The position numbers were made by a program, and so were the translations under genes. The notes beneath the pieces were generated by a model. It did no database searches. It was not told the DNA's origin and saw nothing but the letters and a program-made list of their open reading frames with translations. A stretch of 60,712 nt of DNA from a bacterium (GTDB lineage Bacteria; Patescibacteriota; Saccharimonadia; Saccharimonadales; SZUA-47): assembly GCA_030427445.1 (NCBI GenBank), contig JAUIBQ010000004.1, forward strand, positions 1-60,712, in the 5' to 3' direction. Below, one piece after another: positions 23,918 through 58,317 of this stretch (positions are counted from its first letter, which is position 1; every line of letters starts with the position of its first letter).

Positions 23918-26779
23918 ATGAAATTTAAACACGGGACACGTAGAAGAGCACTCGAATACGAAAAGTATTGGGTTGAACAATGGAAGAAAGACAAGACGTT
24001 CGAGAAGTCTGTCAATCAACGACCAGAAGATAACAGGTACGTATTCTATGATGGTCCGCCATTCATTACAGGAGTTCCTCATCACGGAACACTTCTCGTC
24101 TCTATGATTAAAGATGCGGTTCCTCGCTATCAGACGATGAAGGGTAAACGAGTAGAACGCGTGTGGGGCTGGGATACGCACGGACTACCTGCAGAGAGAT
24201 ATACAGAGAAAAAGCTCGGTCTAAAGTCACGTGAAGATGTCCTTAAATACGGTTTAGAGAACTACATAGAAAAATGTCGAGAAAACATGGTTCAGACTGG
24301 TAGTGAGTGGGAAGACACAGTAGACAGGATAGGTCGTTGGGTGGACTTTAAAGGTGCCTACAAGACGATGGATAAAGAGTACATGGAATCCATCTGGTGG
24401 GCATTCAAGACACTGTATGAGAAAGGGAAGATATACGAAGGTGAAAAGGTGCTCATGTACTGTACTCTCGACGGTACACCGCTTTCAAAAGCCGAAGTGA
24501 CGATGGATGCAGGAGCATACCAAGATATTACTGATCCGAGTGTCTACGTACGGTTTAAACTTGATGATGGGCGTACGATACTTGCATGGACAACAACTCC
24601 ATGGACGCTACCTGCAAATACTGCTCTAGCCGTTAATAAAGGTGTGGCTTACGTAGAGGTTGAGCTTGAAGATGAGACATTTGTCGTTGCTAAAGAGCTC
24701 GCTGAGAAGGTATTTACTGATGAAAAACACAATACTCTTGATTATGAGATAAAGAGAGAGTTTAAGGGCGAGGAGCTAGTAGGACTGAGCTATAAACCAT
24801 TGTTCGTTTATAGAGGTGAGAATGCTCACAAGGTGTGGCATGCCGACTATGTTGAAACTGAAGCAGGTACTGGTATCGTCCACCTCGCACCTACCTATGG
24901 TGAAGAGGACTTTGAGTTGGCTAAACAAGAAGGATTTCCAAGTGTACACGTGCTGGATCAAAACGGCGTGTTTACGGAAGGTGACTGGAAGGGCGAGAAT
25001 GTCTGGGAGATCAACAAGACAATAGCGAAAGACCTAAAAGAGCAAGGCATCGTTTGGAAGATTGACTATATTAGACACAGCTATCCGCACTGTCACCGCT
25101 GTGGCACAAAACTCATGTACAGAGCGCACCCAAGTTGGTTTATGGATATCGATTCTCAGCGCACAAAAATGCTGGAGAAAAACGAACCGATCAACTGGTT
25201 CCCTAATCACATAAAACATGGTCGGTTTGAAAATACTGTCAAACAAGCTCCAGACTGGAATATTTCACGCGATAGATTCTGGGCGACGGCCATGCCTGTA
25301 TGGAAAGGCGAGGATCAAAAGGGAGTTGTTCACACAAAAGTCGTAGGTAGTTATGAAGAGCTAAAGCAGCTCTCGGGAGTCGAGCTAGAGGACTACCACA
25401 GGCCTTATATTGACGATGTAACATTTACAATAGAAGGTATCACTTATAAGAGGATAGATAAGGTTATGGACAGCTGGTTTGAGGCAGGTTCGATGCCGTT
25501 TGCACAGTTCCATTATCCGTTTGAGAATAAGCAAAAGTTCGAACAAAATTTCCCTGGAGATTTCATTGTTGAGTATATCGCACAGACACGAGCTTGGTTC
25601 TATTACATGCACGCGATGAACGTTGCGTTGTTTGGTGAGAATAGCTTTAAGAATGTTATTGTAACGGGAACGTTGGCTGGTAATGATGGTCGTAAGATGA
25701 GCAAAAGTTACGGTAACTACACAGATCCTAACGAGCTCATGGATAAGTTTTCAGCTGATTCACTACGCTTTTTACTGTTATCTAGCCCGCTTCTCAAGGG
25801 TGAAGATTTTTCTTTGCAAGACAAAGAGGTCGGTGATGTTGCACGCAAACTGAGTATGATTTGGAACATGTATGACTTCTTCACTATGTATGCAGAGGTA
25901 GACGGATGGGAGTTTAATGGTGAAGTGACTGATCCTATAAATGATTGTGAAAACCCACTGGATATTTGGGTTATCTCCCGACTACATCAGTTAGTAGAAC
26001 AAGTTGAAGCAAACATGGATGGATATAACATACCAGATGCGATGAGCCCTATCTTAGAATTCATCGACGACGCAAGTAACTGGTACGTAAGAAGGTCTCG
26101 TAGACGTTTCTGGAAGTCAGAGGACGACCAAGACAAAGATATGGCTTACAAGACTCTTCACTACGTGCTCACACGTCTTTCATACGTGCTGGCTCCATTT
26201 ACTCCGTTCTTAAGTGAAGAGCTATATACAAAGCTTACTGGCGATGAGGAGTCGGTGCATCTCAAAGATTGGTGGAATGCTGGTCCGATAAATGAACTTG
26301 TAATGAACGATATGGACGCGGTTCGGGATACAGTAAAAGAAGGACTACGCATGCGTGCACAAAGCCAGATCAAAGTGCGCCAGCCTCTGCAGAGCGTCAC
26401 TGTAAAGAGCATCAGTGAACACTTTGATGTTGTAGAAATATTAACAGAAGAATTAAACGTTAAAGAAGTAAAAACAGGTGATTCAATCAGTATCGATGTA
26501 AATATAACACCAGAATTAGAACTCGAAGGTATCGCCCGTGAAGTGGTTAGACATATTCAATCAGCACGAAAAAATGCAGATTTACAAGTCGGAGATCGAA
26601 TACAATTATGTGTTTCAAGTGATCAGCCGAAGGTCCAAGAGGCTATAAAAGTCCACAAAGAATACATCGCAAATGAGACGCTTGTTGATCGTTGGATGGA
26701 CAATGCAGAGAGTCTGGATTATTCAGACTCTGTGAAGATTGGCGGTGATACACTCACAGTTTCTTTAAGAAAGGCATAG
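23918..26779 (+). CDS. ileS: Isoleucine--tRNA ligase (type 2)
   Basis: YDGPPF..G.PHHGT, GWDTHGLP, WTTTPWTLP, DWNISR, KMSKS, WYVRRSRRRFW; no C-terminal zinc finger. Confidence 0.96.
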   Translation: MKFKHGTRRRALEYEKYWVEQWKKDKTFEKSVNQRPEDNRYVFYDGPPFITGVPHHGTLLVSMIKDAVPRYQTMKGKRVERVWGWDTHGLPAERYTEKKLGLKSREDVLKYGLENYIEKCRENMVQTGSEWEDTVDRIGRWVDFKGAYKTMDKEYMESIWWAFKTLYEKGKIYEGEKVLMYCTLDGTPLSKAEVTMDAGAYQDITDPSVYVRFKLDDGRTILAWTTTPWTLPANTALAVNKGVAYVEVELEDETFVVAKELAEKVFTDEKHNTLDYEIKREFKGEELVGLSYKPLFVYRGENAHKVWHADYVETEAGTGIVHLAPTYGEEDFELAKQEGFPSVHVLDQNGVFTEGDWKGENVWEINKTIAKDLKEQGIVWKIDYIRHSYPHCHRCGTKLMYRAHPSWFMDIDSQRTKMLEKNEPINWFPNHIKHGRFENTVKQAPDWNISRDRFWATAMPVWKGEDQKGVVHTKVVGSYEELKQLSGVELEDYHRPYIDDVTFTIEGITYKRIDKVMDSWFEAGSMPFAQFHYPFENKQKFEQNFPGDFIVEYIAQTRAWFYYMHAMNVALFGENSFKNVIVTGTLAGNDGRKMSKSYGNYTDPNELMDKFSADSLRFLLLSSPLLKGEDFSLQDKEVGDVARKLSMIWNMYDFFTMYAEVDGWEFNGEVTDPINDCENPLDIWVISRLHQLVEQVEANMDGYNIPDAMSPILEFIDDASNWYVRRSRRRFWKSEDDQDKDMAYKTLHYVLTRLSYVLAPFTPFLSEELYTKLTGDEESVHLKDWWNAGPINELVMNDMDAVRDTVKEGLRMRAQSQIKVRQPLQSVTVKSISEHFDVVEILTEELNVKEVKTGDSISIDVNITPELELEGIAREVVRHIQSARKNADLQVGDRIQLCVSSDQPKVQEAIKVHKEYIANETLVDRWMDNAESLDYSDSVKIGGDTLTVSLRKA

Positions 26780-26882
26780 AGCCTCTTTACTTACAGAGGT
26801 AGAACTGGTATAATCTAACCTATTCGTCAAAATAATCTGACCTCTCGGGTACAAAGAGGGGTGAAAACAGGAGAATAAGACA

Positions 26883-27197
26883 ATGGCAAAAGCAGTTGTA
26901 GCATTAGGTGGGTCACAGTACCTTGTGAGTGAAGGTGATACTTTCTCAGTTAACAAAATCAGTGATGCAGAAAATAATAAGAAGATCGAAGTAACCCCTC
27001 TTATGGTGGTTGACGGTGCTTCTTCAAAAGTTGGTGCACCAGACGTAAAAGGCGCCAAGGTAACGCTTAGTGTAGTTCAGGCAGTAGAGAAAGACGACAA
27101 AGTTACGGCAATTCGTTACAAATCTAAGAAACGAGTGCACAAGCGCCGCGGTCACCGACAGCAACTTACGACATTAAAAGTCGATAAAATAGCTTAG
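26883..27197 (+). CDS. rplU: 50S ribosomal protein L21
   Basis: GGSQYLVSEGD, YKSKKR...GHRQ..T. Confidence 0.95.
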   Translation: MAKAVVALGGSQYLVSEGDTFSVNKISDAENNKKIEVTPLMVVDGASSKVGAPDVKGAKVTLSVVQAVEKDDKVTAIRYKSKKRVHKRRGHRQQLTTLKVDKIA

Positions 27198-27215
27198 AGG
27201 CGTATAGCTACAACA

Positions 27216-27246
27216 AATAGAGCCCCCAGTGGGCTCTATTTTATTT
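27216..27246 (+). terminator. Terminator after rplU
   Basis: AAATAGAGCCC-CCAGT-GGGCTCTATTT. Confidence 0.85.
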
Positions 27247-27343
27247 AATTGCAATTCATTGGTAGTGACACTAGGATCACTCTCATTTAGTGCGAAGTAT
27301 TAGGTGCTTGCAGTGTAGTACTCTCGTCAGAGAGTTACTACAC

Positions 27344-27409
27344 TGTGGAAAACTTTATGTAAAAGCGTAAGAAATATACTTGAAATATTGAACAAAATTA
27401 GTGTACACT
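27344..27409 (+). promoter_or_regulatory. Promoter of giant gene 1 with upstream DnaA-box consensus
   Basis: TGTGGAAAA (27344-27352), TTGAAA (27380), 18 nt, TACACT (27404). Confidence 0.6.
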
Positions 27410-27482
27410 AGGGTTGTATCAGAGTAAAAACTGATACAAAGGGCGCGGTTTCGAAGTTAGTCTCGCAACTCTTCGATTCAGC

Positions 27483-30400
27483 GTGTTGCCAACAAACAAC
27501 AAAAAGCAACACGTGAAATATTTAAAAAACAACAAACATAAAAACGTACTATTAAATATATGTACAGCACGGGATGGCAGAGCATCCCTTGCTGGCGTTA
27601 GAGGCCATATACAACGTGTATGGCCTCTTTTCTTTGGTCTAATTTTTCAGATCAGCCGTCGTTCAACCTCACGCGCCCGAGTGTTGAACGACGTTTGTTC
27701 TGAAAAAGTCGTCAACCGAACCCAGTCTTCAACCTCACGCGCCCGAGTGTTGAATGCTGGGTTTGGTTTGCGACGAGCAAAACTCAGTATTCTAGGTCAG
27801 ACCCAGTCTTCAACCTCACGCGCCCGAGTGTTGAATGCTGGGTTTGGCTTTGAATACGCACAACCATCATTGCAGTCAGGATTAACCTCACGCGCCCGAG
27901 TGTTAATCCTGGCTATAGTGATGATGTTGGTTGCCCCTATGGTTATGGCAGTTACTAACGTAGGTATTGCCTCCGCCGCTCCATCCGACACCCTTAACTT
28001 CCAGGGTCGACTCCTCGATGTAAGTGGGGGTCTTGTCTCAGACGGTTACTACAACATAGAGTTTAATCTCTACACTGCAGCAAGCGGTGGATCAAGCATT
28101 TGGACAGAAAGCAGAGAATATAACTCAGGCTCAGGATCATGTACTGGACCTATCAATGGCAATGACTGTCGTGTGAGAGTCTCTAATGGATACTTCTCAG
28201 TTTACCTAGGTGAGGTCACTGCACTACCAAACATAGACTACAGTCAGCAACTCTACCTCACCATGAACATTGACCAAAACGGTACAACAAGCGCAGGAGC
28301 AATTACATACGACGGAGAAATGAACCCTAGATTCAAACTCACTGCAGTACCATATGCTTTCCGGGCTGCTAATGTTGCAAGTGGAGATACAAATGCAGCA
28401 TCAACTGACTCAAGTGACGTAAGTATTACTACTGGTGATGCACTCGGTGCGACAAGTGACTCAGGTGATGTCACGATAGATTCTGGAACAGCAACAGGCA
28501 CTGCAGGTCAGGTACTACTTGGTACTACAAACGCATCAGGTGTCTTAATCGGTAACGCGGGCGCCACAACTACGATTCAAGGGAGTGTGTCGCTTACGGG
28601 TGCAGGCACAGCCCTCACGGTTACGAATGACGCACAGTTTAATGGGGATGTGACTATTGGCTCAGATACGAGCGATTCATTGACCGTAGAGGCTGACGCG
28701 ACGTTTAACGGCTCCCTCACAGTGAGTACCGGTGATGTATTCCAGAATGCAGGTGCGACACTATTTAGCGCGACTAGTATTTCAGATAGAGCCACTGGTG
28801 GCAACATAGGCACGGCAGCAGCTACTGTAGATATTGCTACGACATTCGATGTCAACCAGACGACAGCAGGTCAAACACTTACATTGCCAACTCCAACAAA
28901 TACGGCTTCTGGTCGAGTTGTTTATGTAAACAACGTAGGTTCTGAGAACTTCACGATGTACGGCGAGACGATTGAGACTGGTAGCAGTAGTACATTTATA
29001 TGGAATGGATCTAGTTGGACGACTTCAGTATCGTTCTCTAACACTGGTGTAGACACAGTAGGTGCGCTAGATGGAGTTGCTGCAGCTGCAAACGGTGCGA
29101 CGATTTCTGGTACAACTATTTATCTCCAGTCTGCATCAGCTACTGCTGCTGGATTAGTAAACACATCAGCTCAGACATTTGCTGGCACTAAGACGTTCAA
29201 TAACGGTATTGTATTAGCCGCGAATCAGACCCTCACTGTTACAGGTGGCACAACTGCCAACCGTCCAGGTTCACCAACGGCTGGTATGGTCTATTATGAC
29301 ACTGATACAAACACCCTTCTTACGTATAACGGTACTAAGTGGATCGCGGATCGTGGTGAATACATTATTGTTGCGGCCAATGACTCTACACAAGCTGAGA
29401 AAGACAGTGCTGACTACGTAGCCGATAACACCGATGACCATTTGACTATTAACTCTGCAATAGGTGCACTGAGTAGCGGCGGAGGTAAAGTGTTACTCTT
29501 ACCGGGTACGTTCACGGTAGACGGTTCAATAGAGATAGAAAGCAATGTGACGCTCGCTGGTTCTGGTCAGGAAGCTACGACTCTTATTGCTGAAGCAGGT
29601 GCTTTAGCTGCACAATACGACGTTATCGAAAATGCAAACCCAGGTTCAACTGATAACAACATAACGATCCGTGACCTAACAATCGATGGAAATAAAGATA
29701 ATGTAACTGGTAATGACGTAGAAGGTATCCTGTTTGACACAGTAGGTTCTGGCAGCGGCGCTACGTACGTACGAGGCTTCTTGATCGAGAACATCACAGT
29801 TACTGACACTGAAGGTAACGGTATAGATATCGATACATCCGCAAACGGTTCTATTAAAAACGTAACAGTAAAAGACTTTGGCGTTGCAAATGGTATCCGC
29901 TTGCTCGATTCTGACTACATTAGGGTAGAAGGTAGCGACATAATCGATGGCTTAGCCGACGGACTGTTTATAAGTGCTTCGGACAATAATATTGTGTACG
30001 GCAACTTTATCGATGACAATGGGAATAATGGTTTAGAACTAAATGGAGCAACTCGAGACAACGTTATAGATGGCAACAGGATTACAAATAGTGGTGATCA
30101 TGGTATTGAGCTTGCTGGTGTGGGAGCAAAACAATACAACATTATCAGTAACAACTATATAGGTAATAACACTGATCGAGGATTTACCTCCGTAAATTCA
30201 TATCACAACACTATAACTGGTAACCAATTCTATACAAATGACGCGTCAGGCGTTGATAGTCATATTAATCTTGGTGGATCAGGCGCTAATAACGTCATTA
30301 CTAATAACGTTATCCGTGAAAGCTCAAGTGACGGTTCGGTTTCTATTGCGATTGCGTCTGGCAACGCCACTACATATGTAGCAGATAACCTTATCGACAA

Positions 30401-36790: not shown

Positions 36791-39700
36791 ATGAAAAGAT
36801 TCAGAGGGTATTCTAAATCGAGCAGGAGCGGCAAGATGGTCGCAAGTGGATACTATGCTTTAAGTGATATAGGCTTATTTATTCTCGACCGAGTAGAGAG
36901 GCTTACTAGATCATTTTCTCATTCAAGACGGCTTAGTTTTTTGTTTTTGGCAGTCTTGTTTTCTTTCTCGATTTTTAGTGAGGCATTACTGTTTTTAAGC
37001 AAAGTTGATGCTTCTGACAGAATTACAGGGCAAGTCGAACAACTCTTGGTTGAGAAAATATCTAGCTATGGGAATTTTTTGAGTTTGAGCGAAGACGGAT
37101 CGCATTATGAATACAACAAGGGGTACCAAACCGGCAACAGTACGCTCGGAACGAAAGCATCGCCAAAGTTTAGCGGTCAATTCCCAGTCGATGGCTCAGA
37201 AGGTGTAACGGTCAACGATCCTTCCAGTGGTGTATCGATAAAGATTATCCCGCAGTTTAGGGTTGGAGACGCGTCCAAAGACGAAAATCGACTTGTATAT
37301 CCTCTCCTGGGCAGAGATGCCCTAAAAGTCGTCTCTCTCGGAGGAATCGGTTACAAAGAAGATATCGTTCTCAACACCTACCAGGGGAGGAGTCTTGAAT
37401 TTGACTATGAGTTAGATATACCAAACGGCATTGAGGCTAGACTCGAAGCTGACGGGTCGGTTGCGTTCTATGGCGTCAGAGATGAACTATTGGGTGATGT
37501 CACGACTGCAACCGAACAAGATTTACAGCTACTCGAGAGCGCAAAAGAAAATGGTGAGAAAACAAATTTATTGTTCAGGATACCAGCCCCATACACGCTT
37601 GAATACGCTAGGGAAGTGAGTGTCGTTGATACGTATTTCAAGCTTGACGGTACGACGTTAACCACAGTTGCAACGAACCTCGCTGAGGCGAAATATCCTT
37701 TAACCATCGATCCAAGTGTGTATGTAGAAACTGCACGGAAATTTCTACGTGGTAATGAAGAAACGAACGTCGACTTTGATGTCGACAATGAATTAATTCA
37801 GAAAGGCACCACCACAGGTGCTCGGTTCAATAATTGGTCGAGCACGCTAGCTTTAAACGAAGGACTATACGATGGCGGCAGTGCAGTAGCTGGTGGATAT
37901 GTCTACTACGTAGGGGGCCACACAGGTGCAGGTGGCACAACAGTCGAAACATTTACGTCTGATGGTACGTTTAACGTCCCGGCAGGAGTTACATCGGTAA
38001 CTGTAGAGATGTGGGGCGGTGGCGGCGGTGGCGGCGGCGGCGGTACGAACGCCGGCAGTAATGGCGGTGATGGCGGCGGCGGCGGCTACGCACGTTCAAC
38101 TGTGTCTGTGACACCTGCAGAAAACCTGAATGTTCTTGTTGGCGGCGGTGGTGGCGGCGGTGAAGTAAGTGGTATCTCAGGATCAGGCGGCGGTGGCGGC
38201 GGTCACTCAGAAGTCAATCGCGGTGGTTCACCTTTGGTTATAGCGCCAGGCGGCGGCGGTGGTGGCGGCGGTGATAACTCAGGCGGTGCTGTAGCTGGAG
38301 GTGATGGTGGTGCAGGTGGAGATTCTTCTGGCGGCCTTCCCGGTGATAGCTCAGGATCAGCAGGCGGCGGTGGCGCTGCAACATCTTCTAGCGGTGGCTC
38401 AGGAGGTAATGGTCCTAATAGTGATGGTGAAGCAGGTGGGTCTGAGTTTGGTGGCGACGGTGCAGACGGTCGTGATACCGAAGATAATTCAGATGGCTCT
38501 GCGGCAAATGGCGGATCAAATGGCGGCGGTCCAGGTGGTTTAGCGAACGAGAGCGCTGCGGGTTTTGGTGCTGGCGGTGGCGGTGGTAGCGGATATTATG
38601 GCGGCGGTGGTGGCGCTGGTTCGCAGTCTGGTGGTGATGGTGGTGGCGGTGGTGGTAGTGGTGTTGCGTATTTTGGTGCAGGTACGTCTTCCACGACATC
38701 CACTGGTGGAAGTGGCGCTACACCGGGTAACAGTGGCGACCTTGATCGTGCTGGTGCTGCAGATGGCGGTTCAGGCGGAAACTCAGGAGGCTCTCAGTCA
38801 GCCGGTAGTGTAGGGGACGACGGTATCGTAATTATTTCTTATACAGTATCAGCTTCAAACACAACCAATACTACAGTCTACTGGGCAAATATCGATGATA
38901 ACAGCGGTGGCGTTAGCTCAGCCAACCCAGGAAATGGTGCATGTGCATCATGGTGTACCAATACTGACTACGACCTACCAGAAGAACGACGATCGTTTAG
39001 TTTAGTGGCATATAATGGGTTTCTTTATGCAATAGGGGGTGAAGACGACAGCGGTAACTTCGAAAGTACAGTTTATATAGCGAAGATAGGCGCCAATGGA
39101 GAGCCGAGTTTATGGCACCCTACTGATGACAACAAGGCAAACTGGGTATATTGGTATGAAGATACCAGCGGAGCTTTATCGACCCCAACCCGCTATGGTG
39201 CTGCAAAGGCCTTTAACAACAGACTCTACTTTTTAGGCGGTGAAACATCTGGCGGCGTTGTATCAACAGTGCAATATACTGACTTCGAACCAACTGGCAC
39301 TTTGTCTGGATGGACAACATCTGGAACATCATCCATGTCCACGCCTCGTTACATGCATTCAGTCGAAGCATACAATGACTATCTCTATGTAATAGGCGGA
39401 GATGCGAACACTAGTGGTTCTTTATTGAATACTGTCGATTATGTAAAGCTTGCGAACGATGGGACTTTTGATGGATCCTGGGAATCCACGAGCGCTTTTA
39501 GTAGTGCAAGGCGTACAAATGGCGGTAAATTTACAGCAGTGTACGGAGCATATATTTATTTAACAGGTGGGTGTGTCTCTGTAAGCAGTGGGTATTGTCA
39601 GTCTGTGGGGGATGAAATACAGATTGCTAGCATCTTTGCCGACGGCAGTCTGGGTGATTGGTCTACTGACAGTAATGAAACCAACAATAGAGTAGGGTAC

Positions 39701-42700
39701 GGCTTACATACATGGCAGGGTCATGTGTATCGAGTTGGTGGTTGTACGTCAGTGTCCCCAGGCAGCCATGATTGCTCGACTGCGCTAAGTGGTGTTGACT
39801 TCGGTACAATCAATCCTCCTGGAGAAGTATCTACAGTCAATATCACTGAGTCGTATGGTAGTGGTAATTGTACTGGTGCGACTCCAAATGATTGCGATTT
39901 ACCAGCGACTGGAGACGGGTCAGGACAAGGAGGGCAGATGCTCTCTATGTCAGTGATACTTAATGGATATTTGTATGTTATCGGAGGCTGTACTAACTTT
40001 GGTTGTAGTGATTCTTCTGGCAACGTTTCTTATGCTCAAGTGAGTTCAGATGGCAGCTTAGTCCAAGAAAGCACTTGTGTTGCAAACGGGAACTCATACG
40101 CAAATAGCGGTAATAGCACATGGTGTGTTGATTCGACTAATAGGGTCAACGGCACCAGCGGTATCTCAGCTGCAGGAGTGACAGTGTTTGAGAACAGAAT
40201 CTATTTGGTTGGAGGTATTGACGGAACAGCGACTGGTACGCAGAGTATCTATTGGAATACGATTAATTCTGATGGTAGTTTGTCAGGTGCATGGTCTTCG
40301 ACATCTTTGAACGCAGCAGGGATCACTGCATATACAGAATTATCGTATACGTACGCTTACGCACGAGCAAATCCACAAGCCGCGGGTACGAATCCAGGTA
40401 ATCTGTATGTGCTTGGCGGATGTACCTCGTTTTCTGCCTCTGCTGGGTGTTCAAGTAGCTACGCTTCGGAAGTTTACAAATGTAACATCACTACGTCTGG
40501 TGCGGTTAGCGGCTGTACGACTTCAGGGCAATTGCAAATTGACTCTGAATTAGCGAGTGAATCTAATGAAGGTCTTGGACTGCATTCAGGAACTGTATAC
40601 GCAAATTACATTTATCTTATTGGTGGGTATAGCGACAATGTAGGTGACCGTGACACTGTATTTTATGCAAGGTTTGATGACAGTAATAATATCGTGGATG
40701 TAGAAAGTGGTACCGCTGTGCTTGGCGACCCTGATGATGATTGGATACAGTCTGCTAATGATCTTGATGTGGGTAGACGACGTGGCTGGGCATTCGGATA
40801 TAACGGACATATATACGCGGTCGGAGGATATGATGATACTGGTACAGGAATTATTCCATTTATTGAGTGGGGTAAGCTCAATGTTAGTGATGGTAGTCTT
40901 GATACTTTTGTAACATCTTCTATTACGATTAACCAACGCTGGGGACTGTCTATGGTAGTGTCTAACTCGTTTGCCTACGTTGTCGGAGGTTGTGATGTTG
41001 GCCCAAGCCCAGGTGGATGTAGTAGTTTCGAACCCTCTGTCCAGACATTCCAGCTTTATAACAATGACTCTGGAGCTCAAGCTAACTACACGGAACAGAT
41101 TGGTAATTTCGCTACGAACAATGATCGAATTGGCTCAAGTGCGGCAATTTTAGACGGATATATATATGTTGCAGGTGGTGATACATCTGGAACTGCTACG
41201 AACAATGTCCAATATGCAAAGCTTAATGCTAATGGGACTATCGGCTCTTGGTCTGATACTACAGCAAGCCTTCCATCTGCTAGGTCATATGGTCAACTCG
41301 AGGTGTCAGGCGGAACACTATATTATGTAGGAGGTGAAGATACTGCTGGTGACGAGAAGAGTGAAGTATACTACGCTACTCCTACGACAACATCTGCAGC
41401 TAATGATACGATTCGCTCAACCACGTATAAGCTTAATTCCAATGAATTTAGTGGTGTTAATTATACGCTCTCACTCAATAACAACTTAGAATCTGACTAC
41501 TACGTAATGGTCGCGGGTGCCGATGATACTAACGGTACTAGTGGCCCAGATAGCTCCCATGTAAGAGTTGATGGTGACCCTTTTGGTAATCTCACAGCTA
41601 CCACTGCAGCAGATGAAATCCGTCTTGAACGTGGAAGTTCTGACGACAACTGGAATGGCACAGTAACTGTTGTCGAATGTATAGACAATTGTGCTACTGA
41701 TGGTTTTCAGTTGAGAGAGGTTATTGACGGAACATTGCAGAGCGGAGATACGAGTGAAGATTTTACTCTCAGTTCTGCGCACGATACTAACACAGTACCT
41801 TTTGGAGGATATTTAGGAGGTGGCTTGTCTACTACTGATACAAATCAAAATAACTTCAATGCGACTGCTGGTGTGCGGGTGCGAAAAAATAGTACCAACC
41901 AAATACGTGTTGAGAGAAACGACACACAGGGTACGGCTTCCGCCGCTGATATAACGATATATGTTGTAGAGTGGGGTTCTAGCTGGAATGTACAAGAAGT
42001 AAATGTAGATAACTGGAGCGAGGGTGGGGCTGGTGTAGACGCGACAGGAGAATATCATCAAGAGAGTATTTCGTCAGTAACGGGCGCAAATACGTGGGTC
42101 TGGAAATCTCCAGGTACATCAGAGCAAAATGGCTTAGGTGATGGCGCTTTTGGTAAGGTGTTGACGCTTGGTGACGGAGTTGCTGATCCAACTGGAACCG
42201 TCACACAAATATCTTTAGGGTCAAGATATAGCGATGCTGCAGACGTTAGGGATGACACAGTGTACGTTATGGAGCATTCAAGCCTGGCTGTTGATTATCG
42301 TTTTCATACTGAGAGCGGAACAATTACATTCACAGAGACTGTTGATAGTTCAATTGAGCCAGAGACTGTTTCAACAATAGGTAACGTTACAAGCTCTGAA
42401 GGCTATAGGGTGCCCCTATTCTACTATTCGTCGACTGGTACAGGTACCGCATACACGCGTGTAGCCGGTTATTCTCACTACTATACGAACGATACAACAG
42501 TATCAATCTCTAGAGACTACAATGGTCAGGATAATGCTGGTTGGTTACAATCAGTAGATTTTGGTAATCTTGCAGGATCAGGCGGTGGAGCAGGTGACAT
42601 ATCTACGTGGTCAACCGCGAGCAATGGTCTTCCTGGTGATAGAACTAAGCATGGTGCTGCGGTGTGGAACGACCGAATATATGTAGTTGGTGGACTGAAT

Positions 42701-44503
42701 GATAGTGCAAGCCCTACAAACACTGTGTACATCTCACCTAAGTTAAGTGGAGGTGGAAATATTACAACAGCATGGGCGACTGATGCGGACGTGCCAGATG
42801 TTGCAAGGAGCGGTGCAACAGTTATCTCATATGCCAACAACCTGTATTTCTTAGGAGGAAACGACGGAACAAACTATCTTTCTGATGTGCAGTTTACAAC
42901 AATAGGTTATAAAACAGGCACTATTAGTCAGTCAGGTACGACTTTGACCGGTACTGGTACCACATGGACATCTAGTATGGTTGGGAGTGTTGTTCAGTAC
43001 GCTGATGGTTCCTATGCTAATGTCACTGGGTTCACAAATGCTACCACGCTAACTGTTGATGCTAGTAAAACCGTGGACCCAGGCACAAGATACCTCATTG
43101 ACGATGGATCAGTAGGGAACTGGACGTATACTACTAACCTAACACGACAAGTAAGTGACGCAGATGGATTTGCAGTAAATGGTTTTATCTATCTATTTGG
43201 CGGTAGGTCTTCTGATTTTGAATGCACAAACAATAGTTATGTAGCACCAATAAGCGCTAATACCACAATCGACTCTGGAAACAATCCAACAGGTATAGGT
43301 GAATGGTACCAGACTAACGTAGAATTTTCAGGAGCCCGTCGCAGCCCTGCAGTTGCGTATAGTGAAGGTAAGGTTTATATATCAGGAGGAGGATGCGATA
43401 CCGGTACTATACAATACGGTCAATACACATTCGATTCAGATAATGACTCTGATGAATCAGCGTGGACTTTTGTCTCGGATAACGGTTCTAATGGTCTAAA
43501 CCCAGCAAATACTGGGCGCGCATGGTCTCACGATACCAATGATACTTCTTCAGGCAATGTGGGTCCGACTTCTGGACAGGGGGGCAATCCTGACGGTTAC
43601 GTGTATACAGAAGCTTCAAACCCGGCGAGTGGGGGCGATACGTTTACTATGACCTTAAATAATACATTAAATGCATCTACACATGACTGGGAGGTCGACT
43701 TCTTCTGGAATCAACGCGGTGATGACAATACTGCAATCGTACGAGTGCAGACAAATGAAGGCGGTGGAGGTTGGGTCACACGGGGGACGTACGGTAGCGG
43801 AGGACCAGATGTCGCATCTGGCGGAACTCAGGTGTGGAATGGTGAGACGCTAGACTTAGCTTCAGCAATAAGTAACTCATCAACTCAGGTAAGATTCCAA
43901 GTAACCTTAGGGTCTACAGGAAATATATGGCATAACGACTTTGGGCTGGACTCGATCACCATTACGGGTACAGCTCCATCAGTGTATCCTGAGCTAACTT
44001 CAAGTCAGCACTATATAGGTACGCTTCGAGCTCAACCTCAAGTGGCCCGGTACTCATATTTCGTAGATGCAGATAGTGATGTGTTCCCGAACTCATGGTT
44101 GCTTAACGGTCTGGATAATAACATTGGTGCACGGTGGCAGTTTGCATATCGTTCGTCTACAGATGCTGCAAATACATGGGGGCTTGATACGGACTTTGGT
44201 GATGTTCAGCTGGGACGAGTTGAACCGTATATCCCGAAAGATGGAGCAGGCGTAGACACTGAGTTCGCTAGGTACTTCTATGTCACAGTGTCAATCGACG
44301 CATCTCAAACATTCGGGTACCCAGACGATGTTGCGAGAGGCCCTACGGTGACAGATATGTCCCTCTTCTTCGTGTCTGATCCGAATAAACGGTTACGTCA
44401 TGGTAAGACGTTTATACAAGGGCTTGAACAGCCTCTGGACACGCCATGTAGAGTTAGTGGTGCAAGTCCCGCTGGAAGTCAGCCTAACTGTCCTATCCCT
44501 TAG
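36791..44503 (+). CDS. Giant Kelch-repeat surface protein with Gly-rich and MAM-like domains (2570 aa)
   Basis: N-terminal TM; KEDIVL...IPAP...YPLTIDP domain; Gly-rich domain (~37950-38850); many YxxGG Kelch blades; GPTSG...GYVYTEAS MAM-like segment (~43420-43970). Confidence 0.88.
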   Translation: MKRFRGYSKSSRSGKMVASGYYALSDIGLFILDRVERLTRSFSHSRRLSFLFLAVLFSFSIFSEALLFLSKVDASDRITGQVEQLLVEKISSYGNFLSLSEDGSHYEYNKGYQTGNSTLGTKASPKFSGQFPVDGSEGVTVNDPSSGVSIKIIPQFRVGDASKDENRLVYPLLGRDALKVVSLGGIGYKEDIVLNTYQGRSLEFDYELDIPNGIEARLEADGSVAFYGVRDELLGDVTTATEQDLQLLESAKENGEKTNLLFRIPAPYTLEYAREVSVVDTYFKLDGTTLTTVATNLAEAKYPLTIDPSVYVETARKFLRGNEETNVDFDVDNELIQKGTTTGARFNNWSSTLALNEGLYDGGSAVAGGYVYYVGGHTGAGGTTVETFTSDGTFNVPAGVTSVTVEMWGGGGGGGGGGTNAGSNGGDGGGGGYARSTVSVTPAENLNVLVGGGGGGGEVSGISGSGGGGGGHSEVNRGGSPLVIAPGGGGGGGGDNSGGAVAGGDGGAGGDSSGGLPGDSSGSAGGGGAATSSSGGSGGNGPNSDGEAGGSEFGGDGADGRDTEDNSDGSAANGGSNGGGPGGLANESAAGFGAGGGGGSGYYGGGGGAGSQSGGDGGGGGGSGVAYFGAGTSSTTSTGGSGATPGNSGDLDRAGAADGGSGGNSGGSQSAGSVGDDGIVIISYTVSASNTTNTTVYWANIDDNSGGVSSANPGNGACASWCTNTDYDLPEERRSFSLVAYNGFLYAIGGEDDSGNFESTVYIAKIGANGEPSLWHPTDDNKANWVYWYEDTSGALSTPTRYGAAKAFNNRLYFLGGETSGGVVSTVQYTDFEPTGTLSGWTTSGTSSMSTPRYMHSVEAYNDYLYVIGGDANTSGSLLNTVDYVKLANDGTFDGSWESTSAFSSARRTNGGKFTAVYGAYIYLTGGCVSVSSGYCQSVGDEIQIASIFADGSLGDWSTDSNETNNRVGYGLHTWQGHVYRVGGCTSVSPGSHDCSTALSGVDFGTINPPGEVSTVNITESYGSGNCTGATPNDCDLPATGDGSGQGGQMLSMSVILNGYLYVIGGCTNFGCSDSSGNVSYAQVSSDGSLVQESTCVANGNSYANSGNSTWCVDSTNRVNGTSGISAAGVTVFENRIYLVGGIDGTATGTQSIYWNTINSDGSLSGAWSSTSLNAAGITAYTELSYTYAYARANPQAAGTNPGNLYVLGGCTSFSASAGCSSSYASEVYKCNITTSGAVSGCTTSGQLQIDSELASESNEGLGLHSGTVYANYIYLIGGYSDNVGDRDTVFYARFDDSNNIVDVESGTAVLGDPDDDWIQSANDLDVGRRRGWAFGYNGHIYAVGGYDDTGTGIIPFIEWGKLNVSDGSLDTFVTSSITINQRWGLSMVVSNSFAYVVGGCDVGPSPGGCSSFEPSVQTFQLYNNDSGAQANYTEQIGNFATNNDRIGSSAAILDGYIYVAGGDTSGTATNNVQYAKLNANGTIGSWSDTTASLPSARSYGQLEVSGGTLYYVGGEDTAGDEKSEVYYATPTTTSAANDTIRSTTYKLNSNEFSGVNYTLSLNNNLESDYYVMVAGADDTNGTSGPDSSHVRVDGDPFGNLTATTAADEIRLERGSSDDNWNGTVTVVECIDNCATDGFQLREVIDGTLQSGDTSEDFTLSSAHDTNTVPFGGYLGGGLSTTDTNQNNFNATAGVRVRKNSTNQIRVERNDTQGTASAADITIYVVEWGSSWNVQEVNVDNWSEGGAGVDATGEYHQESISSVTGANTWVWKSPGTSEQNGLGDGAFGKVLTLGDGVADPTGTVTQISLGSRYSDAADVRDDTVYVMEHSSLAVDYRFHTESGTITFTETVDSSIEPETVSTIGNVTSSEGYRVPLFYYSSTGTGTAYTRVAGYSHYYTNDTTVSISRDYNGQDNAGWLQSVDFGNLAGSGGGAGDISTWSTASNGLPGDRTKHGAAVWNDRIYVVGGLNDSASPTNTVYISPKLSGGGNITTAWATDADVPDVARSGATVISYANNLYFLGGNDGTNYLSDVQFTTIGYKTGTISQSGTTLTGTGTTWTSSMVGSVVQYADGSYANVTGFTNATTLTVDASKTVDPGTRYLIDDGSVGNWTYTTNLTRQVSDADGFAVNGFIYLFGGRSSDFECTNNSYVAPISANTTIDSGNNPTGIGEWYQTNVEFSGARRSPAVAYSEGKVYISGGGCDTGTIQYGQYTFDSDNDSDESAWTFVSDNGSNGLNPANTGRAWSHDTNDTSSGNVGPTSGQGGNPDGYVYTEASNPASGGDTFTMTLNNTLNASTHDWEVDFFWNQRGDDNTAIVRVQTNEGGGGWVTRGTYGSGGPDVASGGTQVWNGETLDLASAISNSSTQVRFQVTLGSTGNIWHNDFGLDSITITGTAPSVYPELTSSQHYIGTLRAQPQVARYSYFVDADSDVFPNSWLLNGLDNNIGARWQFAYRSSTDAANTWGLDTDFGDVQLGRVEPYIPKDGAGVDTEFARYFYVTVSIDASQTFGYPDDVARGPTVTDMSLFFVSDPNKRLRHGKTFIQGLEQPLDTPCRVSGASPAGSQPNCPIP

Positions 44504-45492: not shown

Positions 45493-45547
45493 TACGGCAG
45501 ATCTAAAAAAATAAAAAAGATCAAAACAAAAAAACAAAAGGCTACAA

Positions 45548-48500
45548 ATGCACTATTCGGGAAGGGACGCCCGTAAAGCGTTTAAAGTAAAGAAAAAAGC
45601 ATTACTAGAGAATCATAGCTCTGGTAATGCTTTTTTTATTGCTTTTAAAGATTTAGGTAGCACACTAAGAATTAAATGGATACTATTCGCATGTATCTGT
45701 TTAGTCGTCCCATTTAGTGTGCTTCCTAGTTCTTTAACTGGTCAGATTGCAGAAGCGGCTCCTGCGGATACATTAAATTTCCAAGGACGCCTCCTCGATT
45801 CATCAGGTGGTCTCACTTCTGATGGTTTCTACGACATAGAATTTAATCTCTATGACAATGCTTCTGGTGGCTCTTCTCTCTGGACAGAAACATGGAACAC
45901 GGGAACAAGCCAAGTGAGAATAGCTAATGGTTACTTCTCTGTCTATCTTGGTACTCATACTTCTTTCCCTTCTCTGGATTGGACGGATGATAAGTTTCTC
46001 ACTATGAATGTCGAAGGAGACGGAGAAATGAATCCTCGTTTCCGGCTCACAGCAGTACCGTATGCCTTTGCAGCCCAGCAAGCTACTGAATTGGTAGCTT
46101 CTGACTCTGGTTTCACGACAAACGTCACTGTAGATACTCCAACTCAGAACAACAGCATAACTCTGCCAGATGAGTCAGGTGAGGTCTGTCTGACAAGTGG
46201 CAACTGTGCCGGTGTAGGTGGAGTGGGAGATATACTTGATGGTGGTCAAACAGGAGCTATATCCATTGGTACTACGAATGACACAACACTCACGTTACTC
46301 CAGAACAACAATGCAGCATTGACGGTAAACTCGTCTCAGCTCCTCCAGTTCAATGCCTACAGCTGTTCCACATTTGCTAACGGCGGTACACTTACCACAG
46401 ACGCAAGTGGTAACGTCATCTGTGCTGATGATGATGGTGGTGGGGGAGGTTCAGGAGTTACGACGATAGGTACTATCGACGGAGGAACGTTAAGCTCAAA
46501 CGGCGCTTCAATAAGTGGTACTACATTATATCTTCAAGCTGCTTCTACTCTGTATCCTGGGCTTGTTACAACAGGTTCGCAAACGTTTGCAGGAAGTAAG
46601 ACATTTAATTCACCTGCAGTATTTCAAGATTTGACTATTTCTGCAGGGGAAAGCCTACAGATTAATAGTGAGTGGTTTGGTGACTTAACTGGCAATGGTC
46701 TTACAAATTCAGGAAGTGCACTAACCGTTCTTGTGCAAGCAAACAAAGGTCTTGAAGTTGACAGCAATGGAATATCACTAATAGATTGTGCTGACGGCCA
46801 AATACTGCAGTACGCTACTGGTTCAAGCTCATGGGCGTGCGCAGATACGGCAGGTACTGGCTCAGATGAAATCATCACTGTAGCTGCAGTTGATTCTACA
46901 GCAACCCAAAAAGCAGCAGCCGACTATGTTGCTGATGGTACAAGCGACGAAACTGAAATCAACAATGCGCTAACAGAGGCCTACAACTCTGGAGTTGGTG
47001 GCGAAGTTATTCTGCTTGGCGGAACTTTCACAGTTGATGGGTCTATCTCGATTCCGAATAACACTACACTATCTGGTGAAGGGTCGGGTACAGTTATTGA
47101 GCTCGATAACCTTGATAGCGATATAAATTTAATTACTAACACCGACACTTCAGGCGGTACTGGTGTTGTTGTTCGCGATTTAACCCTTGATGGACGAAGT
47201 GATCTAAACACAGCAGGTAATCAATTTGCGATACTTTTTAGCGGTATGGGTAGTGTTTCAGCCGATAGAGCTGGGGGCCTGATAGAGAATGTAAGTATTG
47301 TTGATTTTAGCCCTGCTGGAGGGTTTTTCTACGGAGGTATAGCGCTAAATGGATCCGATAATAATGTTATAAGTGGCAACACGCTTGAAGGAAATGGGTT
47401 TGGTGTGTATGTCGGTGGATCTTCCAAGAACAAAATAACAGATAATTATATATCCGGAGGCAACTTGGGTATATATGCGCAGTTAACATCAAATGACAAC
47501 GTCATAGCTGACAACACTATTTCTGAACATTCTTTACATGGTATTCACTTTGATAGTAGCGGCACTGGTACTGCAATTACGGGTAACACTATAGAGAATA
47601 ATGATCAATTTGGCGTGTATCTTGAAAATGGATTTTATTATGCCTCTATAGTAGGCAACACTATTACCAGTAATGATTACGGTGGTATTTATCTAGATAT
47701 TGCTCATGGTAGCACGATTGCAGGTAATACATTTGATGGTAACGCCGGTGCCGTAAGCACCTATGCAGCAACCGATAATACTATTGTCGGAAATACTATA
47801 ACGAATAGCAGTATTGGTGGTGTCTATTTAGAGCAAAGCGACACCAACATAGTTTCTGATAACATTTTTACTAACAACGCAGGTGATAACATATATCTCG
47901 AGTCTGACAGTAATAATAATACGATTTCCAACAACATAATTACTGACTCAGCAGCTAGTGGGTTTGCGATAGAGATCAATGGAGCTACCAATGACAATAA
48001 CTATCTTTCAAACAACACATACTCTGGTACAGGGGCAGCTGGGATTAATGATTCCGGTACAAATACTATTTATGCAGGCCAAGTCGATACTTCTGGAAAT
48101 TATGATATACAACCTACAGGTACTGTTGAGCTTCTGGCAAATACAAATCTTACAGGAGATTTTGATGTCACAGGAACAACATCATTTGACGGTGCTGTTA
48201 CTATCGGTGATGCAGTTGGTGATACGCTTACTGTTAATGCAGGGTCTATTCAGTTCGCAAATAACTTTGTTAGTTGTACGGCCATTAATTCTGATGCTTC
48301 TGGTAACTTAGGTTGCGATACAAACACTTATCTTACAGCAGGAACTATATCATTACAGGGTTCCTATGACGGGGGTAATACAATCCTTGCAGATAATGCA
48401 GGAGGCGACATAGACTTTACGGTGTCTGAAGCAACCAGCTTTACAGTTGACATCACTGGTACAGGTTCTTTCCAAGTTCAAGACAGTGGTGTTGCTGTTT

Positions 48501-51500
48501 TTACAATTGCAGATGGTGGTGCCGTAACTGCTACACAGCTCGTTACACTCAATGGCGGTCTTACGGTAGAAGCTGGCGATACATTCACGTTTAACAATGA
48601 TGCATTTACGGATCTTACCGGTACAGGATTACAGATTAACTCTGGTAGCTTAGAAACAACTCTTGGCACAACAATCGAGACTTCAGAAATAACAGATGCT
48701 AATGTAACGAACTCAAAACTTGCTAATAGTCAGCTGGCGGTAAATACAGGCTCAGGGTTAGCGGGTGGTGGCAATATCTCATTGGGTGGTTCAAGAACGT
48801 TAAGTCTTGGTGACTTGTCATCTGATTGGACGCAAGCTGGTGGTTACGACATTATCCTCGACAACGCAGGCAGTGAGCTCCGGATTGTTGAAGCTTCTGG
48901 TGGAATATATTATGGCGAATTTGATGTCACGGATTTAAATGCAGACAGACTGTACACTTTTCCTGATGCATCAGGTGAGGTATCTGTTCTCGGTCAGATA
49001 ATTGAGAATGGCGAACTTCAAAACAGTAATGTAACAATTACAGCGGGTACAGGGCTGTCTGGAGGTGGGCTTGTCGCGTTGGGTGGAAGTGTGAGTCTTA
49101 CAAGCACACTAGGGTCATCTATTGATGGCACAGAAATCGATAACGGCACAATAGAAGCAATTGATTTTGAAGTGACAGCTGCTCCTACAGATAATTACGT
49201 ACTAAGTTATGATTCCGCGACAGGAGGGTTTACTTGGGTTGATCCGGGGGCTGTAGGTACACAATTGACAGAAGCAGAGGTTGAAGACTACATTTTCGAC
49301 GCTGATAATGGTGTAAAGGTTTTAAGCTCAGGACAGTTAGCGTTAAATTCATTGACTTATACTGGTCAACTCGAGAATGCAAATATCAGCGACACTCTTA
49401 CTATAGGCTCATCATCGACTGTTGACGACGGTGCGTTAAGTACTAACGTTTCATTACTCGGTAGTTCAATCGCATTGGGTTCAGAAACTACAGGCAACTA
49501 CGTACAATCGATTTCTACAGGTAACGGTATTCAAGGCGGTGTTAGTGGTGTGGGCAGCACCCCTGCTTTGTCTCTTAGTGATTTAACGGCGAACTGGAAC
49601 CAAACAGCCGCATTTGATTTAGTGTTGGATAACACTGATAGCCAACTTCGTATCTTAGATGATGCGGGTACATACTACGGTGAATTCAATGTTACAGGTA
49701 TAGGGTCTGACCAGGTCTATAACTTCGGTACTGGCGGAGTGATACTATCGTCTGGAAATATTGCATCATACGCAACAACAGGAGTTACTGCAGGCGCAGG
49801 TTTAGTTAACGGAGGTACGACCGGAACTATTACGTTAGATGTCGGGGCGGGTAATGGTCTTACGGTAAATGCTAACGATATAGAAGTAGATTATGGCTCA
49901 AGTGCTAACACGGCTGTCGAAGGAAATACAACGATAACTATATCTGCTGGTACAGGTCTTTCAGGGGGTGGACTATTAACTCTCGGAGCAGGAGGTACAG
50001 TAACATTAAATAGCAATCTTGGAGACACAATAGATAGCTCAGAGATAGTAAATGGTACTATTCAAGGTGCTGATCTGGAGTCTACTAATAGTGCGACCGA
50101 CACATATGTATTAACTTATGATAGTGCAACAGACGGGTTTACATATGTTTCTCAAGCTGCAGTAGGTAGCGCAGGTGGTAGTGGCGTAACATCTCTTAAC
50201 TCGCTCACAGGAGCCCTATCTATAAACGGGAATTCTCAAATTTCCGTTGCACCATCTGGGACAGACATAGATCTAAGTATCGCAACAGGCAGCATAGGCG
50301 CAACTCAGCTCGGTTCAACCGCAGTTACTGCAAGTAGTTATGGTTCAGCTAGTCAAGTAGCAACATTTACTGTAGACGGTGATGGTCGTCTGACTGCCGC
50401 CGGAAACACTTCAATCTCTATAGCCGCTACTCAAGTCACCAGCGGTACATTATCTGTTTCGCGTGGCGGTACTGGCGTAGGGTCTCACACGTCAGGAGGA
50501 ATCTTGCTTGGTAACGGCACAAGTGCAATACAAAATACAGGCGTGTTAACGAATGGTCAATTACTTATTGGTGATGGATCAGGAGCACCTACAGTAGCAA
50601 CATTAAGCTCGGGTTCAGGTATAAATATCACAAATGGTTCGGGTAGTATAACGATCGCATCTACACTAGGAACTGCCGTAGACGGAAGTGAAATCGTTAA
50701 CGGTAGTATAGAGGCTGTTGATATTGAATCTACAAATGTTGCGGGTGCCGGAACTGACAACTATTTGTTGTCATATGACAATGCTACAGGTGGCTTCACC
50801 TATGTAGATGGAGGAAGCGTTGGAACGACTCTGACTGAGGCTCAAGTCGAAGCTTACATCTTCGATGGCGACAACTCAGGGATACTTAGTTCTGGTACAT
50901 TAGCCCTCAACTCATTAAGCTACACAGGTAGCTTAGGAGTAAGTAATGGTGGCACTGGACTAACAAGTGCTGGTGCAGCAGGTGGTGTGTATTATTCTAC
51001 GGGAACAGCATTCGCCAATAGTGGAGTGGGAACTTCGGGCCAATGTTTACTTAGTAGTGGAGCAGGTGCGCCAACCTGGGGTAATTGTGGTGGGTCTGGT
51101 GCAGGAGCAGTGACACTGCAGGTAGCATATGATCAAGGAAATACAATTACTACTACGAACGCAAGAAACATAGCATATACTCTTGCAAACACAGCAACAG
51201 ATAGTGATTTTGTTGTTAATATTGCATCGGGTTCTTCAAGTGAAGTTGCATTTCAATTTAACGGTTCGTCATTATTACGAATAGATAGCGGTGGAATTGA
51301 CCTTATTGATGTCGATGTAGCTGATTTCAGCGGAGCGACTGTTACATTTGATGCTGGAGAAATTTTAGAAACAGAAATAGCTCAAAATTCTCTTGATGAT
51401 TCAGAGATTGAAGACGATAGTCTGACTTCTAGTAGTTTGGCGGCTAACTCTGTTGACTCATCAGAACTCTCAAGTACCACCGTCGGTGCTGGAAGTTATG

Positions 51501-58195: not shown

Positions 58196-58317
58196 GTTAG
58201 GTAGATCTGACTGACAAACAAAAAACGAAAAACAAACAGATCACAAGAACCAACTGAGAGGCAGGGTGAAACCTGCTACTTTTGGTAAAAACACAAAACT
58301 AAAACCAAAGGCAAAAA

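Follow-up and report, generated by a model that had tools for sequence, protein, structure and literature searches.

At the start of a 9-kb gene in the DNA analysed here, a stretch of 60,712 nucleotides from a bacterium of the Saccharimonadales (hereafter the window), four hairpins that present the same loop follow one another within the reading frame. This raises the question of what a repeated RNA structure can do in a sequence that is also translated. The first-pass annotation of the window took the hairpins for an undescribed multivalent element, acting as a protein-binding, antitermination or translation switch. They are the 3' part of a conserved leader of about 550 nucleotides, which belongs to a giant secreted-protein gene and reaches about 300 nucleotides further upstream than the array first noticed (Table 1).

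Table 1. Positions in the window of the leader features and of the gene that follows.
Feature	Position	Strand	Details
DnaA-box-like 9-mer	27344..27352	+	upstream of promoter
Sigma-70-like promoter	27380..27409	+	-35 at 27380-27385, -10 at 27404-27409
P1, 5' hairpin	27416..27437	+	from folding; just past inferred transcription start; sequence differs between loci
Strand a (GGGCGC + purine)	27441..27447	+	candidate docking strand; complement of cap loops; alternative pairing with strand b
P2 hairpin	27450..27476	+	loop motif CTCGCA at 27462-27467
P3 hairpin	27482..27513	+	paired strands b (27482-27489) and c (27506-27513); A-rich loop
Conserved start codon	27513..27515	+	GTG here, ATG in 19/29
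Giant predicted surface protein, 3041 aa	27513..36638	+	N-terminal beta-sandwich domain common to two other giant genes in the window
P5, conserved hairpin	27567..27592	+	codons ~19-27
P6, intrinsic-terminator-like hairpin with U-rich tail	27600..27636	+	hairpin at 27600-27628; inside reading frame
Cap hairpin 1	27643..27707	+	from folding; loop d at 27671-27678
Cap hairpin 2	27708..27774	+	from folding; loop d at 27737-27744
Cap hairpin 3	27787..27857	+	from folding; loop d at 27818-27825
Cap hairpin 4	27865..27923	+	loop d at 27890-27897; overlaps start of hydrophobic signal segment
Hydrophobic core and predicted Ala-X-Ala signal-peptidase site	27900..27977	+	hydropathy and loose motif test, 20/20 loci

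Hairpins inside a reading frame

The repeated unit carries a 21-mer, the cap, whose four identical copies lie at 27665, 27731, 27812 and 27884, as had been annotated; 100 shuffles gave 0 matches to it. Elsewhere in the 966-kb, 43-contig genome, the cap is absent at up to four mismatches. Folding of 27590-27940 yields the four cap hairpins and the terminator-like hairpin (-177.7 kcal/mol; z = -16 relative to shuffles), and hairpins 1 and 4 folded alone give z = -7.95 and z = -5.04, respectively. Each unit consists of a long stem, a one-base bulge on the 3' side, three pairs and an eight-base loop. These are the only clustered hairpins among the 29 of the genome that have at least 20 pairs. The array directly follows the terminator-like hairpin (27600-27628) and its T-rich tail, in agreement with the annotation. 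The lower stems were also said to differ and still pair. They do pair, but copies 2 and 3 are identical at 49 of 50 nucleotides, so that only three stems are independent.

Comparison of 71 distinct caps substantiates the fold. Over 14 pairs, 95% of the 994 cells are paired, against 21-41% in slid controls, and double changes occur in 12 of the 14 pairs. The hexamer GCGCCC of the loop, by contrast, never varies (71/71). On the plus strand, G-U pairs outnumber A-C juxtapositions by 33 to 10, a modest lean toward a plus-strand RNA; of the two natures first proposed, RNA is thus retained and single-stranded DNA is less favoured. Complete loci hold two to six caps, the number differing between species. 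Within a locus, all caps share the same base at one flank of the loop, a single degenerate case aside, and concerted evolution is thereby implied.

The array was annotated as in frame, and this extends to relatives. In the window, spacings of 66, 81 and 72 nucleotides place all four caps in the frame of the 9-kb ORF, each encoding TSRARVL; among the loci, 55/55 spacings are divisible by 3 and the phase of the loop is identical in 81/81 cases. The gene frame has no stop in 3025 codons (241 and 164 in the other two frames), and the frame from the conserved ATG or GTG is open to the mature domain in 20/20 complete loci. The Ala codon of the loop is GCC in 71/71 caps, whereas the adjacent residues vary (R/C/S and R/L), which indicates that the constraint on the loop acts at the nucleotide level. 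On these comparative grounds, the array is translated, yet RNA is its conserved layer. Arrest peptides of the SecM, MifM and RAPP type were defined by residue-level conservation of the arrest motif; in the caps, the codon is fixed and the residues on either side of it change. A regulatory leader peptide ending at its own stop, as in attenuators, was not found either, no stop preceding the mature domain in the 20 complete loci.

Where translation starts was revised. An in-frame GTG had been noted in the cap; as a start it was rejected, this triplet being kept in only 5 of the 71 caps (GCG in 37). The conserved ATG or GTG lies upstream, at 27513. The start chosen by the ORF finder, 27483, falls within strand b; in relatives whose loop differs in length, it is not in frame.

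The hydrophobic core begins 3-14 residues past the last cap in 19/20 loci, and a loosely defined Ala-X-Ala site follows it in 20/20. The last copy abuts the signal-peptide core, in line with the annotation, which had it supply the basic n-region. The 98-215 residues ahead of the mature domain (about 155 here) are predicted to be cut off, and the hairpins would be free to evolve in coding sequence because the part of the signal peptide that they encode is expected to be discarded.

A conserved leader ahead of a giant gene

Of 30 other genomes of this Saccharibacteria family, 11 have the cap, always at a single locus; among 30 genomes from other families, 0 have it. Reading of these cap-bearing loci revealed the conserved upstream part of the leader. 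Patterns containing neither strand a nor the loop then matched in 16 of the 31 family genomes and in one genome of a second family (G130). Applied to metagenomes, the same patterns gave at least 15 genuine loci among at least 120 matches. A pattern including strand a added G014, and a covariance model added G163, also of that second family, on a contig that stops short of any cap. The element is thus present at 29 distinct loci, in 17 of 31 genomes of this family and in 2 of 5 of the second. All 29 distinct 5' modules were analysed (26 loci with caps, 20 complete loci for the frame tests). Patterns not containing GGGCGC found 27 of the 29, and G019 and G006 enter the tallies solely as misses. 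In a scan of a genome collection with a loose pattern, one genuine locus (L245) occurred among the 80 matches listed of at least 120, the others being judged chance matches; order-wide pattern matches in G172, G372 and G273 were false. Across 151 genomes of the order, the covariance model with strict filters returned known loci only (5/151). The element is absent from G022 and from the complete genome G007. In the sister genera represented by G028, G026 and G016, the giant gene still comes after rplU; its leader is of another kind there, and the array is missing.

Several loci deserve a separate mention. At L312, L313 and L322, in the sister genera, the place of the array is taken by a spacer of about 1 kb between rplU and the giant gene, which has hairpins of its own and a conserved small ORF, predicted to encode a membrane protein. 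Possible relics exist in G007 (L335, L336), where one giant gene has the P2 loop motif in its leader and another a single cap-like loop sequence in its n-region; strand a is absent there. At the end of its contig (L024), the array of G024 finishes in a tandem repeat of 69 bases, near-exact and probably an assembly artefact; several contigs break in or near the array. The ORF upstream of the leader at L041 and L170 is presumably RAYT/Y1-transposase-like, and a four-helix-bundle-like ORF is found at L104.

Searches of known families gave little. Against Rfam 15, positions 26500-28500 of the window returned eight weak matches (best 24.5 bits, for a gathering threshold of 104) and five relative loci none. 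No prior description was found among the papers listed by literature searches; the supplements of large RNA-motif screens could hold one. The annotated idea of an undescribed repeated element with a single loop thus stands, and the element is a genuine structured RNA, restricted to one clade and not described before, whose mechanism can be tested.

The same distribution bears on a DNA-level origin, either as a relic of REP/MITE sequences or as inverted recombinase sites, strand a and the caps lying on opposite strands, that would serve phase variation. Strand a does correspond to the minus-strand sequence of the cap core, copy number differs between loci, and the putative RAYT-like gene lies upstream in two loci. 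REP and MITE elements are repeated hairpins with a conserved core, dispersed in the genome. Here, the four copies form one locus, with one locus in each of 11 relatives, neither dispersed nor intergenic and always in frame in one gene, which answers the annotation's own check for a dispersed element. No inverted or frame-broken version was seen in the 20 complete loci, and the excess of G-U over A-C given above also speaks against DNA. A joint across the array was likewise not found in DNA contigs of four runs over 27150-28500, a weak result as contigs drop rare variants and two runs seem to be one data set. Integron arrays consist of attC-length sites separating gene cassettes, whereas AAC and GTT are here 15 nucleotides apart and no genes lie between copies. 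A DNA-level element is very improbable.

Upstream of strand a, a DnaA-box-like 9-mer that was part of no search pattern is found at 83-107 nucleotides in 29/29 loci. The sigma-70-like promoter scores 9/12 in a consensus scan, by itself chance level, and is conserved in alignments A1 and A2. The minus strand of 27100-28100 gave neither promoter nor terminator in such a scan. The genome has 21 DnaA-like boxes, of which three precede a gene that we take, from sequence likeness, to be dnaA-like (C29) and one precedes each of three related giant genes. In the window, the giant genes that share an N-terminal domain have their boxes at 27344, 45429 and 58132, which suggests, at the level of motifs, a DnaA regulon of surface proteins. 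A second leader motif recurs, in which a short stem containing GATC encloses a long, A-rich loop. In the window, at about 45495-45520 and 58200-58245, it lies ahead of giant genes 3 and 4; in relatives (loci L312, L313, L322 and L336), it lies ahead of the small membrane ORF that follows rplU in G028, G026 and G016 and of a giant gene in G007.

The array stands after ileS and rplU and heads a series of giant genes (of 3041, 2570, 3724 and over 798 residues), three of which have the N-terminal domain in common. No Pfam or NCBIfam family was obtained for the 3041-residue protein. The model of its N-terminal domain (pLDDT 71) gave no Foldseek match at E <= 0.001, and the best structural comparison (VIA) had Z 6.5 (rmsd 3.2, 88 aligned); as modelled, the domain would be a generic beta-sandwich, only generically Ig/FnIII-like and of no specific family. 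The 2570-residue protein (36791-44503) has Kelch repeats, and the 3724-residue protein (45548-56722) beta-helix and Peptidase_S74 chaperone domains; both are adhesin- or tail-fibre-like. The signal n-region of gene 3 contains, at 45583-45646, a single 28-pair hairpin without the cap loop, and G022 (L337) has one too; structured signal n-regions may be general in this giant-gene family.

Hairpin P2, next to strand a, shows double changes in 5 of its 7 pairs. Its loop motif CTCGCA is invariant, which the search pattern partly imposed, yet it is also present in G163, found by the model, and is repeated past the start codon in G130 and G163. No pairing partner was found for it, and the P2 loop probably binds a factor that sets the switch. 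By eye, the loop is complementary to five anticodon-loop bases of tRNA-Arg(GCG). The tRNA calls include two tRNA-Arg(GCG) genes (C23, C29), two tRNA-Glu(CTC) genes (C12, C32) and no tRNA-Ile(GAT). Mimicry of tRNA acceptor stems, considered from a likeness to tRNA-Arg ends, was rejected, no called tRNA of the genome having the sequence. A nutrient-sensing attenuator could be imagined from the P2 complementarity, all the more as each cap has at least one Arg codon: ribosomes stalled at these codons would melt the caps and turn the gene on, with a possible reading of tRNA-Arg by the P2 loop. The Arg content, however, is a consequence of the G/C-rich loop. Cys replaces one Arg in 24/71 caps and Leu the other in G130, and all caps would need to melt together. 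T-box features (stem I, the T-box antiterminator motif) were absent from the Rfam results. We regard an arginine attenuator as scarcely credible.

Strand a, the cap loops and the start codon

What was newly recognised in the leader is an invariant upstream strand that is complementary to the cap loops and that can also pair with an arm of the hairpin burying the start codon. GGGCGC is invariant in 29/29 loci, about 65-72 nucleotides upstream of the start, and is the exact complement of the loop GCGCCC (-13 to -14 kcal/mol for the duplex). Strand a and the loop are both invariant, single-stranded segments. As the core never varies, it gives no covariation, and only the flanks can be compared. 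At the first flank, the loop has U only where strand a has A (10 loci) and in 0 of the 9 cap-bearing loci where strand a has G; the flank pair is an A-C mismatch in 5 of the 26 cap-bearing loci. At the other flank, C:G is the pair in most of the family and A:U the one in G130, and three loci, including the window, have an A-G mismatch; the register of G130 differs at the first flank. From these complementarities, strand a probably pairs with a cap loop. The likeliest ligand of the loop would be RNA in cis, because its conserved complement is in the same leader. Among the functions first annotated, the translation switch fits, while protein gives way to cis RNA as the likeliest ligand.

The pairing with strand a would be incidental or secondary if the hairpins were protein-binding or ribosome-pausing aids to export in a cell devoid of SRP, or substrates of RNase III. 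No SRP54-family match was found in the 97%-complete genome, where RNase III is present, and SRP is described as absent in many CPR (PMC8080830). The fixed geometry of 3 bp, bulge and 11 bp, the position of the last cap against the hydrophobic core and the capless 28-bp hairpin of gene 3 agree with such a role. Pausing, on the other hand, requires no invariant loop, a perfect six-base complement between two invariant strands is left unexplained, and the loss of SRP appears, from the account in PMC8080830, common to relatives that have no array. We consider this reading quite unlikely.

P3 buries the first base of the start codon in the 29 loci (100% of cells paired). A U-A to C-G change is tied to the choice of ATG or GTG, 5/29 loci having a U-G wobble, and in G163 the start is still buried by a P3 of different sequence. 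Strand b of this hairpin can also pair with strand a in 29/29 loci (6-8 pairs, G-U-rich). Such a competition would account for the freezing of a, b, c and the loop. In the GTG group, to which the window belongs, the preferred a:b register is shifted by two, so that fixed-register covariation is weak there. On the rplU tree, which leaves out 6 loci without rplU or caps, the A/ATG group is one clade (100/98) inside a G/GTG grade, and the loop U arises within the clade. Flank and start changes are thus few events; the linked change of a, b and start being a single one, the split of 19 versus 10 is no replication.

Before strand c is transcribed, a:b would form with P >= 0.98 in 29/29 loci, whatever the register, but shuffled versions of a also pair with b (mean P 0.61-0.80). 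The pseudoknot of a with the loop, which ViennaRNA cannot fold, was mimicked by masking strand a. With a masked, opening of the start costs 9.6 instead of 4.2 kcal/mol in 18 ATG loci and 12.1 instead of 5.8 in 9 GTG loci. Shuffled a gives about half of this gain (2.5-3.3 of 5.4-6.3 kcal/mol), and the best shuffle often equals the native strand. At the locus of the window, the cost is 4.3 kcal/mol with a free and 11.3 with a masked. Relative to 400 of the 524 crudely called start regions of this genome (median 6.5 kcal/mol), the start passes from easier than 77% to the hardest 8%.

Between start and caps, a terminator-like site is found at +113 to +139 in 17 of the 18 loci with a late first cap, and a U run accompanies the first cap in 6 of 8 early-cap loci, in a permissive and uncalibrated scan. 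No match to Rho was found in the genome, making intrinsic termination the route; NusG is present. This position, between a and the caps, lends itself to pairing between molecules: terminated leader RNAs, having strand a without caps, could titrate the loops of mRNAs, copy number setting a threshold, or mRNAs could be cross-linked into multivalent assemblies. One donor for N acceptors is a natural design for action in trans. Against this, cis pairing over 190-450 nucleotides should win over trans, and early-cap loci would release an RNA containing its own loop. Pairing between molecules thus appears distinctly unlikely.

A putative lock and its relation to known switches

It can be proposed, tentatively and at slightly less than even odds, that the conserved leader is a self-locking translation switch in which the cap loops capture strand a. 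In the ON state, a would pair with b and the start would be freed; in the OFF state, b would pair with c and a with a cap loop, the start being buried. Strand a would thus first help to open the hairpin that hides the start. Once transcribed, the cap loops would capture it and P3 would lock initiation off, ribosomes loading solely in the seconds that pass after the start is made and before the first cap is. If no ribosome were loaded, the U-tailed hairpin would stop transcription of the gene of about 9 kb. As a translating ribosome would unfold about one hairpin at a time, two to six copies would keep one loop free, the extra copies maintaining the lock. A lock persisting in translation would limit each transcript to a short burst, or a few copies, of a very costly protein, and the DnaA box would couple transcription to the cell cycle.

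Further findings count against the lock. In the sister genera, the orthologous gene does without the element, and with strand c present and no cap, P3 is already 84-100% formed at equilibrium. Because P3 is closed anyway, the sign of the a:loop pairing is the main doubt. The same complementarity would serve if docking activated the gene: it could keep the start region open to ribosomes, protect the 5' end or assemble an antitermination complex that serves the 30-kb cluster, the repeats keeping a docked during ribosome passage. A further lock seems redundant on a closed P3, three more giant genes lie downstream on the same strand, and a precedent exists in an activating GGCG/CGCC pseudoknot (as reported for it in PMC4705826). 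Docking would, however, remove the only strand found to compete with P3, and the terminator-like hairpin precedes the caps, which cannot prevent it. Genes 3 and 4, moreover, each come with a DnaA-like box, and probably a promoter, of their own. Activation by docking is unlikely, and the lock remains our preferred, if tentative, reading.

Two systems come close to it. In repZ of ColIb-P9 and the IncI complex, a GUG start is masked by a hairpin, and pairing of a loop with a distant strand (GGCG/CGCC) decides initiation, according to the description in PMC4705826. From that description, the masked start (here P3) is common to both, and the pairing of a loop with a distant G/C strand and the remodelling of RNA by ribosome movement would be. 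In repZ, by contrast, the loop is single and upstream and its pairing activates, with a separate leader peptide and an antisense RNA (PMC4705826). Here, the strand is upstream and the loops, two- to sixfold, are downstream in the same reading frame. The stable hairpin is present at the start codon, and the G/C segments are complementary and invariant, with partly compensatory flanks, as judged from sequence. No antisense gene or uORF was found at the leader. In place of an upstream leader peptide on a plasmid rep gene, one continuous frame belongs to a chromosomal gene after rplU.

The maturation-protein gene's 5' UTR in Levivirus (MS2), as presented in PMC4615214, folds transiently so that nascent RNA is translated before an inhibitory long-distance pairing forms, giving few protein copies. 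A kinetic permissive window ahead of inhibition and a low output would be shared, whereas in the phage RNA a single inhibitory UTR strand pairs straight with the SD sequence (PMC4615214). The lock proposed here would be indirect, capturing an opener, and is repeated and coding. A comparable window could lie in the computed formation of a:b before c in 29/29 loci, shuffled a pairing too. Ribosome-mediated attenuators of the trp-leader type rely on mutually exclusive pairings of four strands, with a U-tailed hairpin within reach of the ribosome. The leader would resemble them in both respects, the terminator-like site having been located with an uncalibrated scan. Unlike them, it lacks a separate leader peptide and a series of regulatory codons, keeps its terminator-like hairpin within the reading frame of the gene itself and has an array as its fourth strand. 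By analogy, the element would work most like the repZ pseudoknot switch and the MS2 window, while belonging to neither, nor to attenuators.

Giant surface proteins of Patescibacteria are thought to mediate attachment to the host, as put forward for Vampirococcus (PMC8080830). In the present case, a bolder and more doubtful possibility, read from the arrangement of the locus, is that of a countable array of locks in a disposable signal peptide, which would capture one upstream key strand and survive ribosome transit by redundancy. It would restrict the synthesis of a giant adhesin to a burst of a single molecule, or a few, for each transcript timed by DnaA, the number of locks, two to six, being an evolvable dial, and would represent a new class of mRNA control. 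The predicted cleavage of the signal peptide would make it free coding space for RNA structure, and tandem repetition is a suggested way for an in-frame RNA structure to keep working during translation. The RNA family, absent from Rfam 15, has variation enough for a seed alignment. To our knowledge, regulation in Patescibacteria has barely been charted, and the element offers a concrete, mutable handle on how an epibiont with a 1-Mb genome rations a protein of 3,000 residues.
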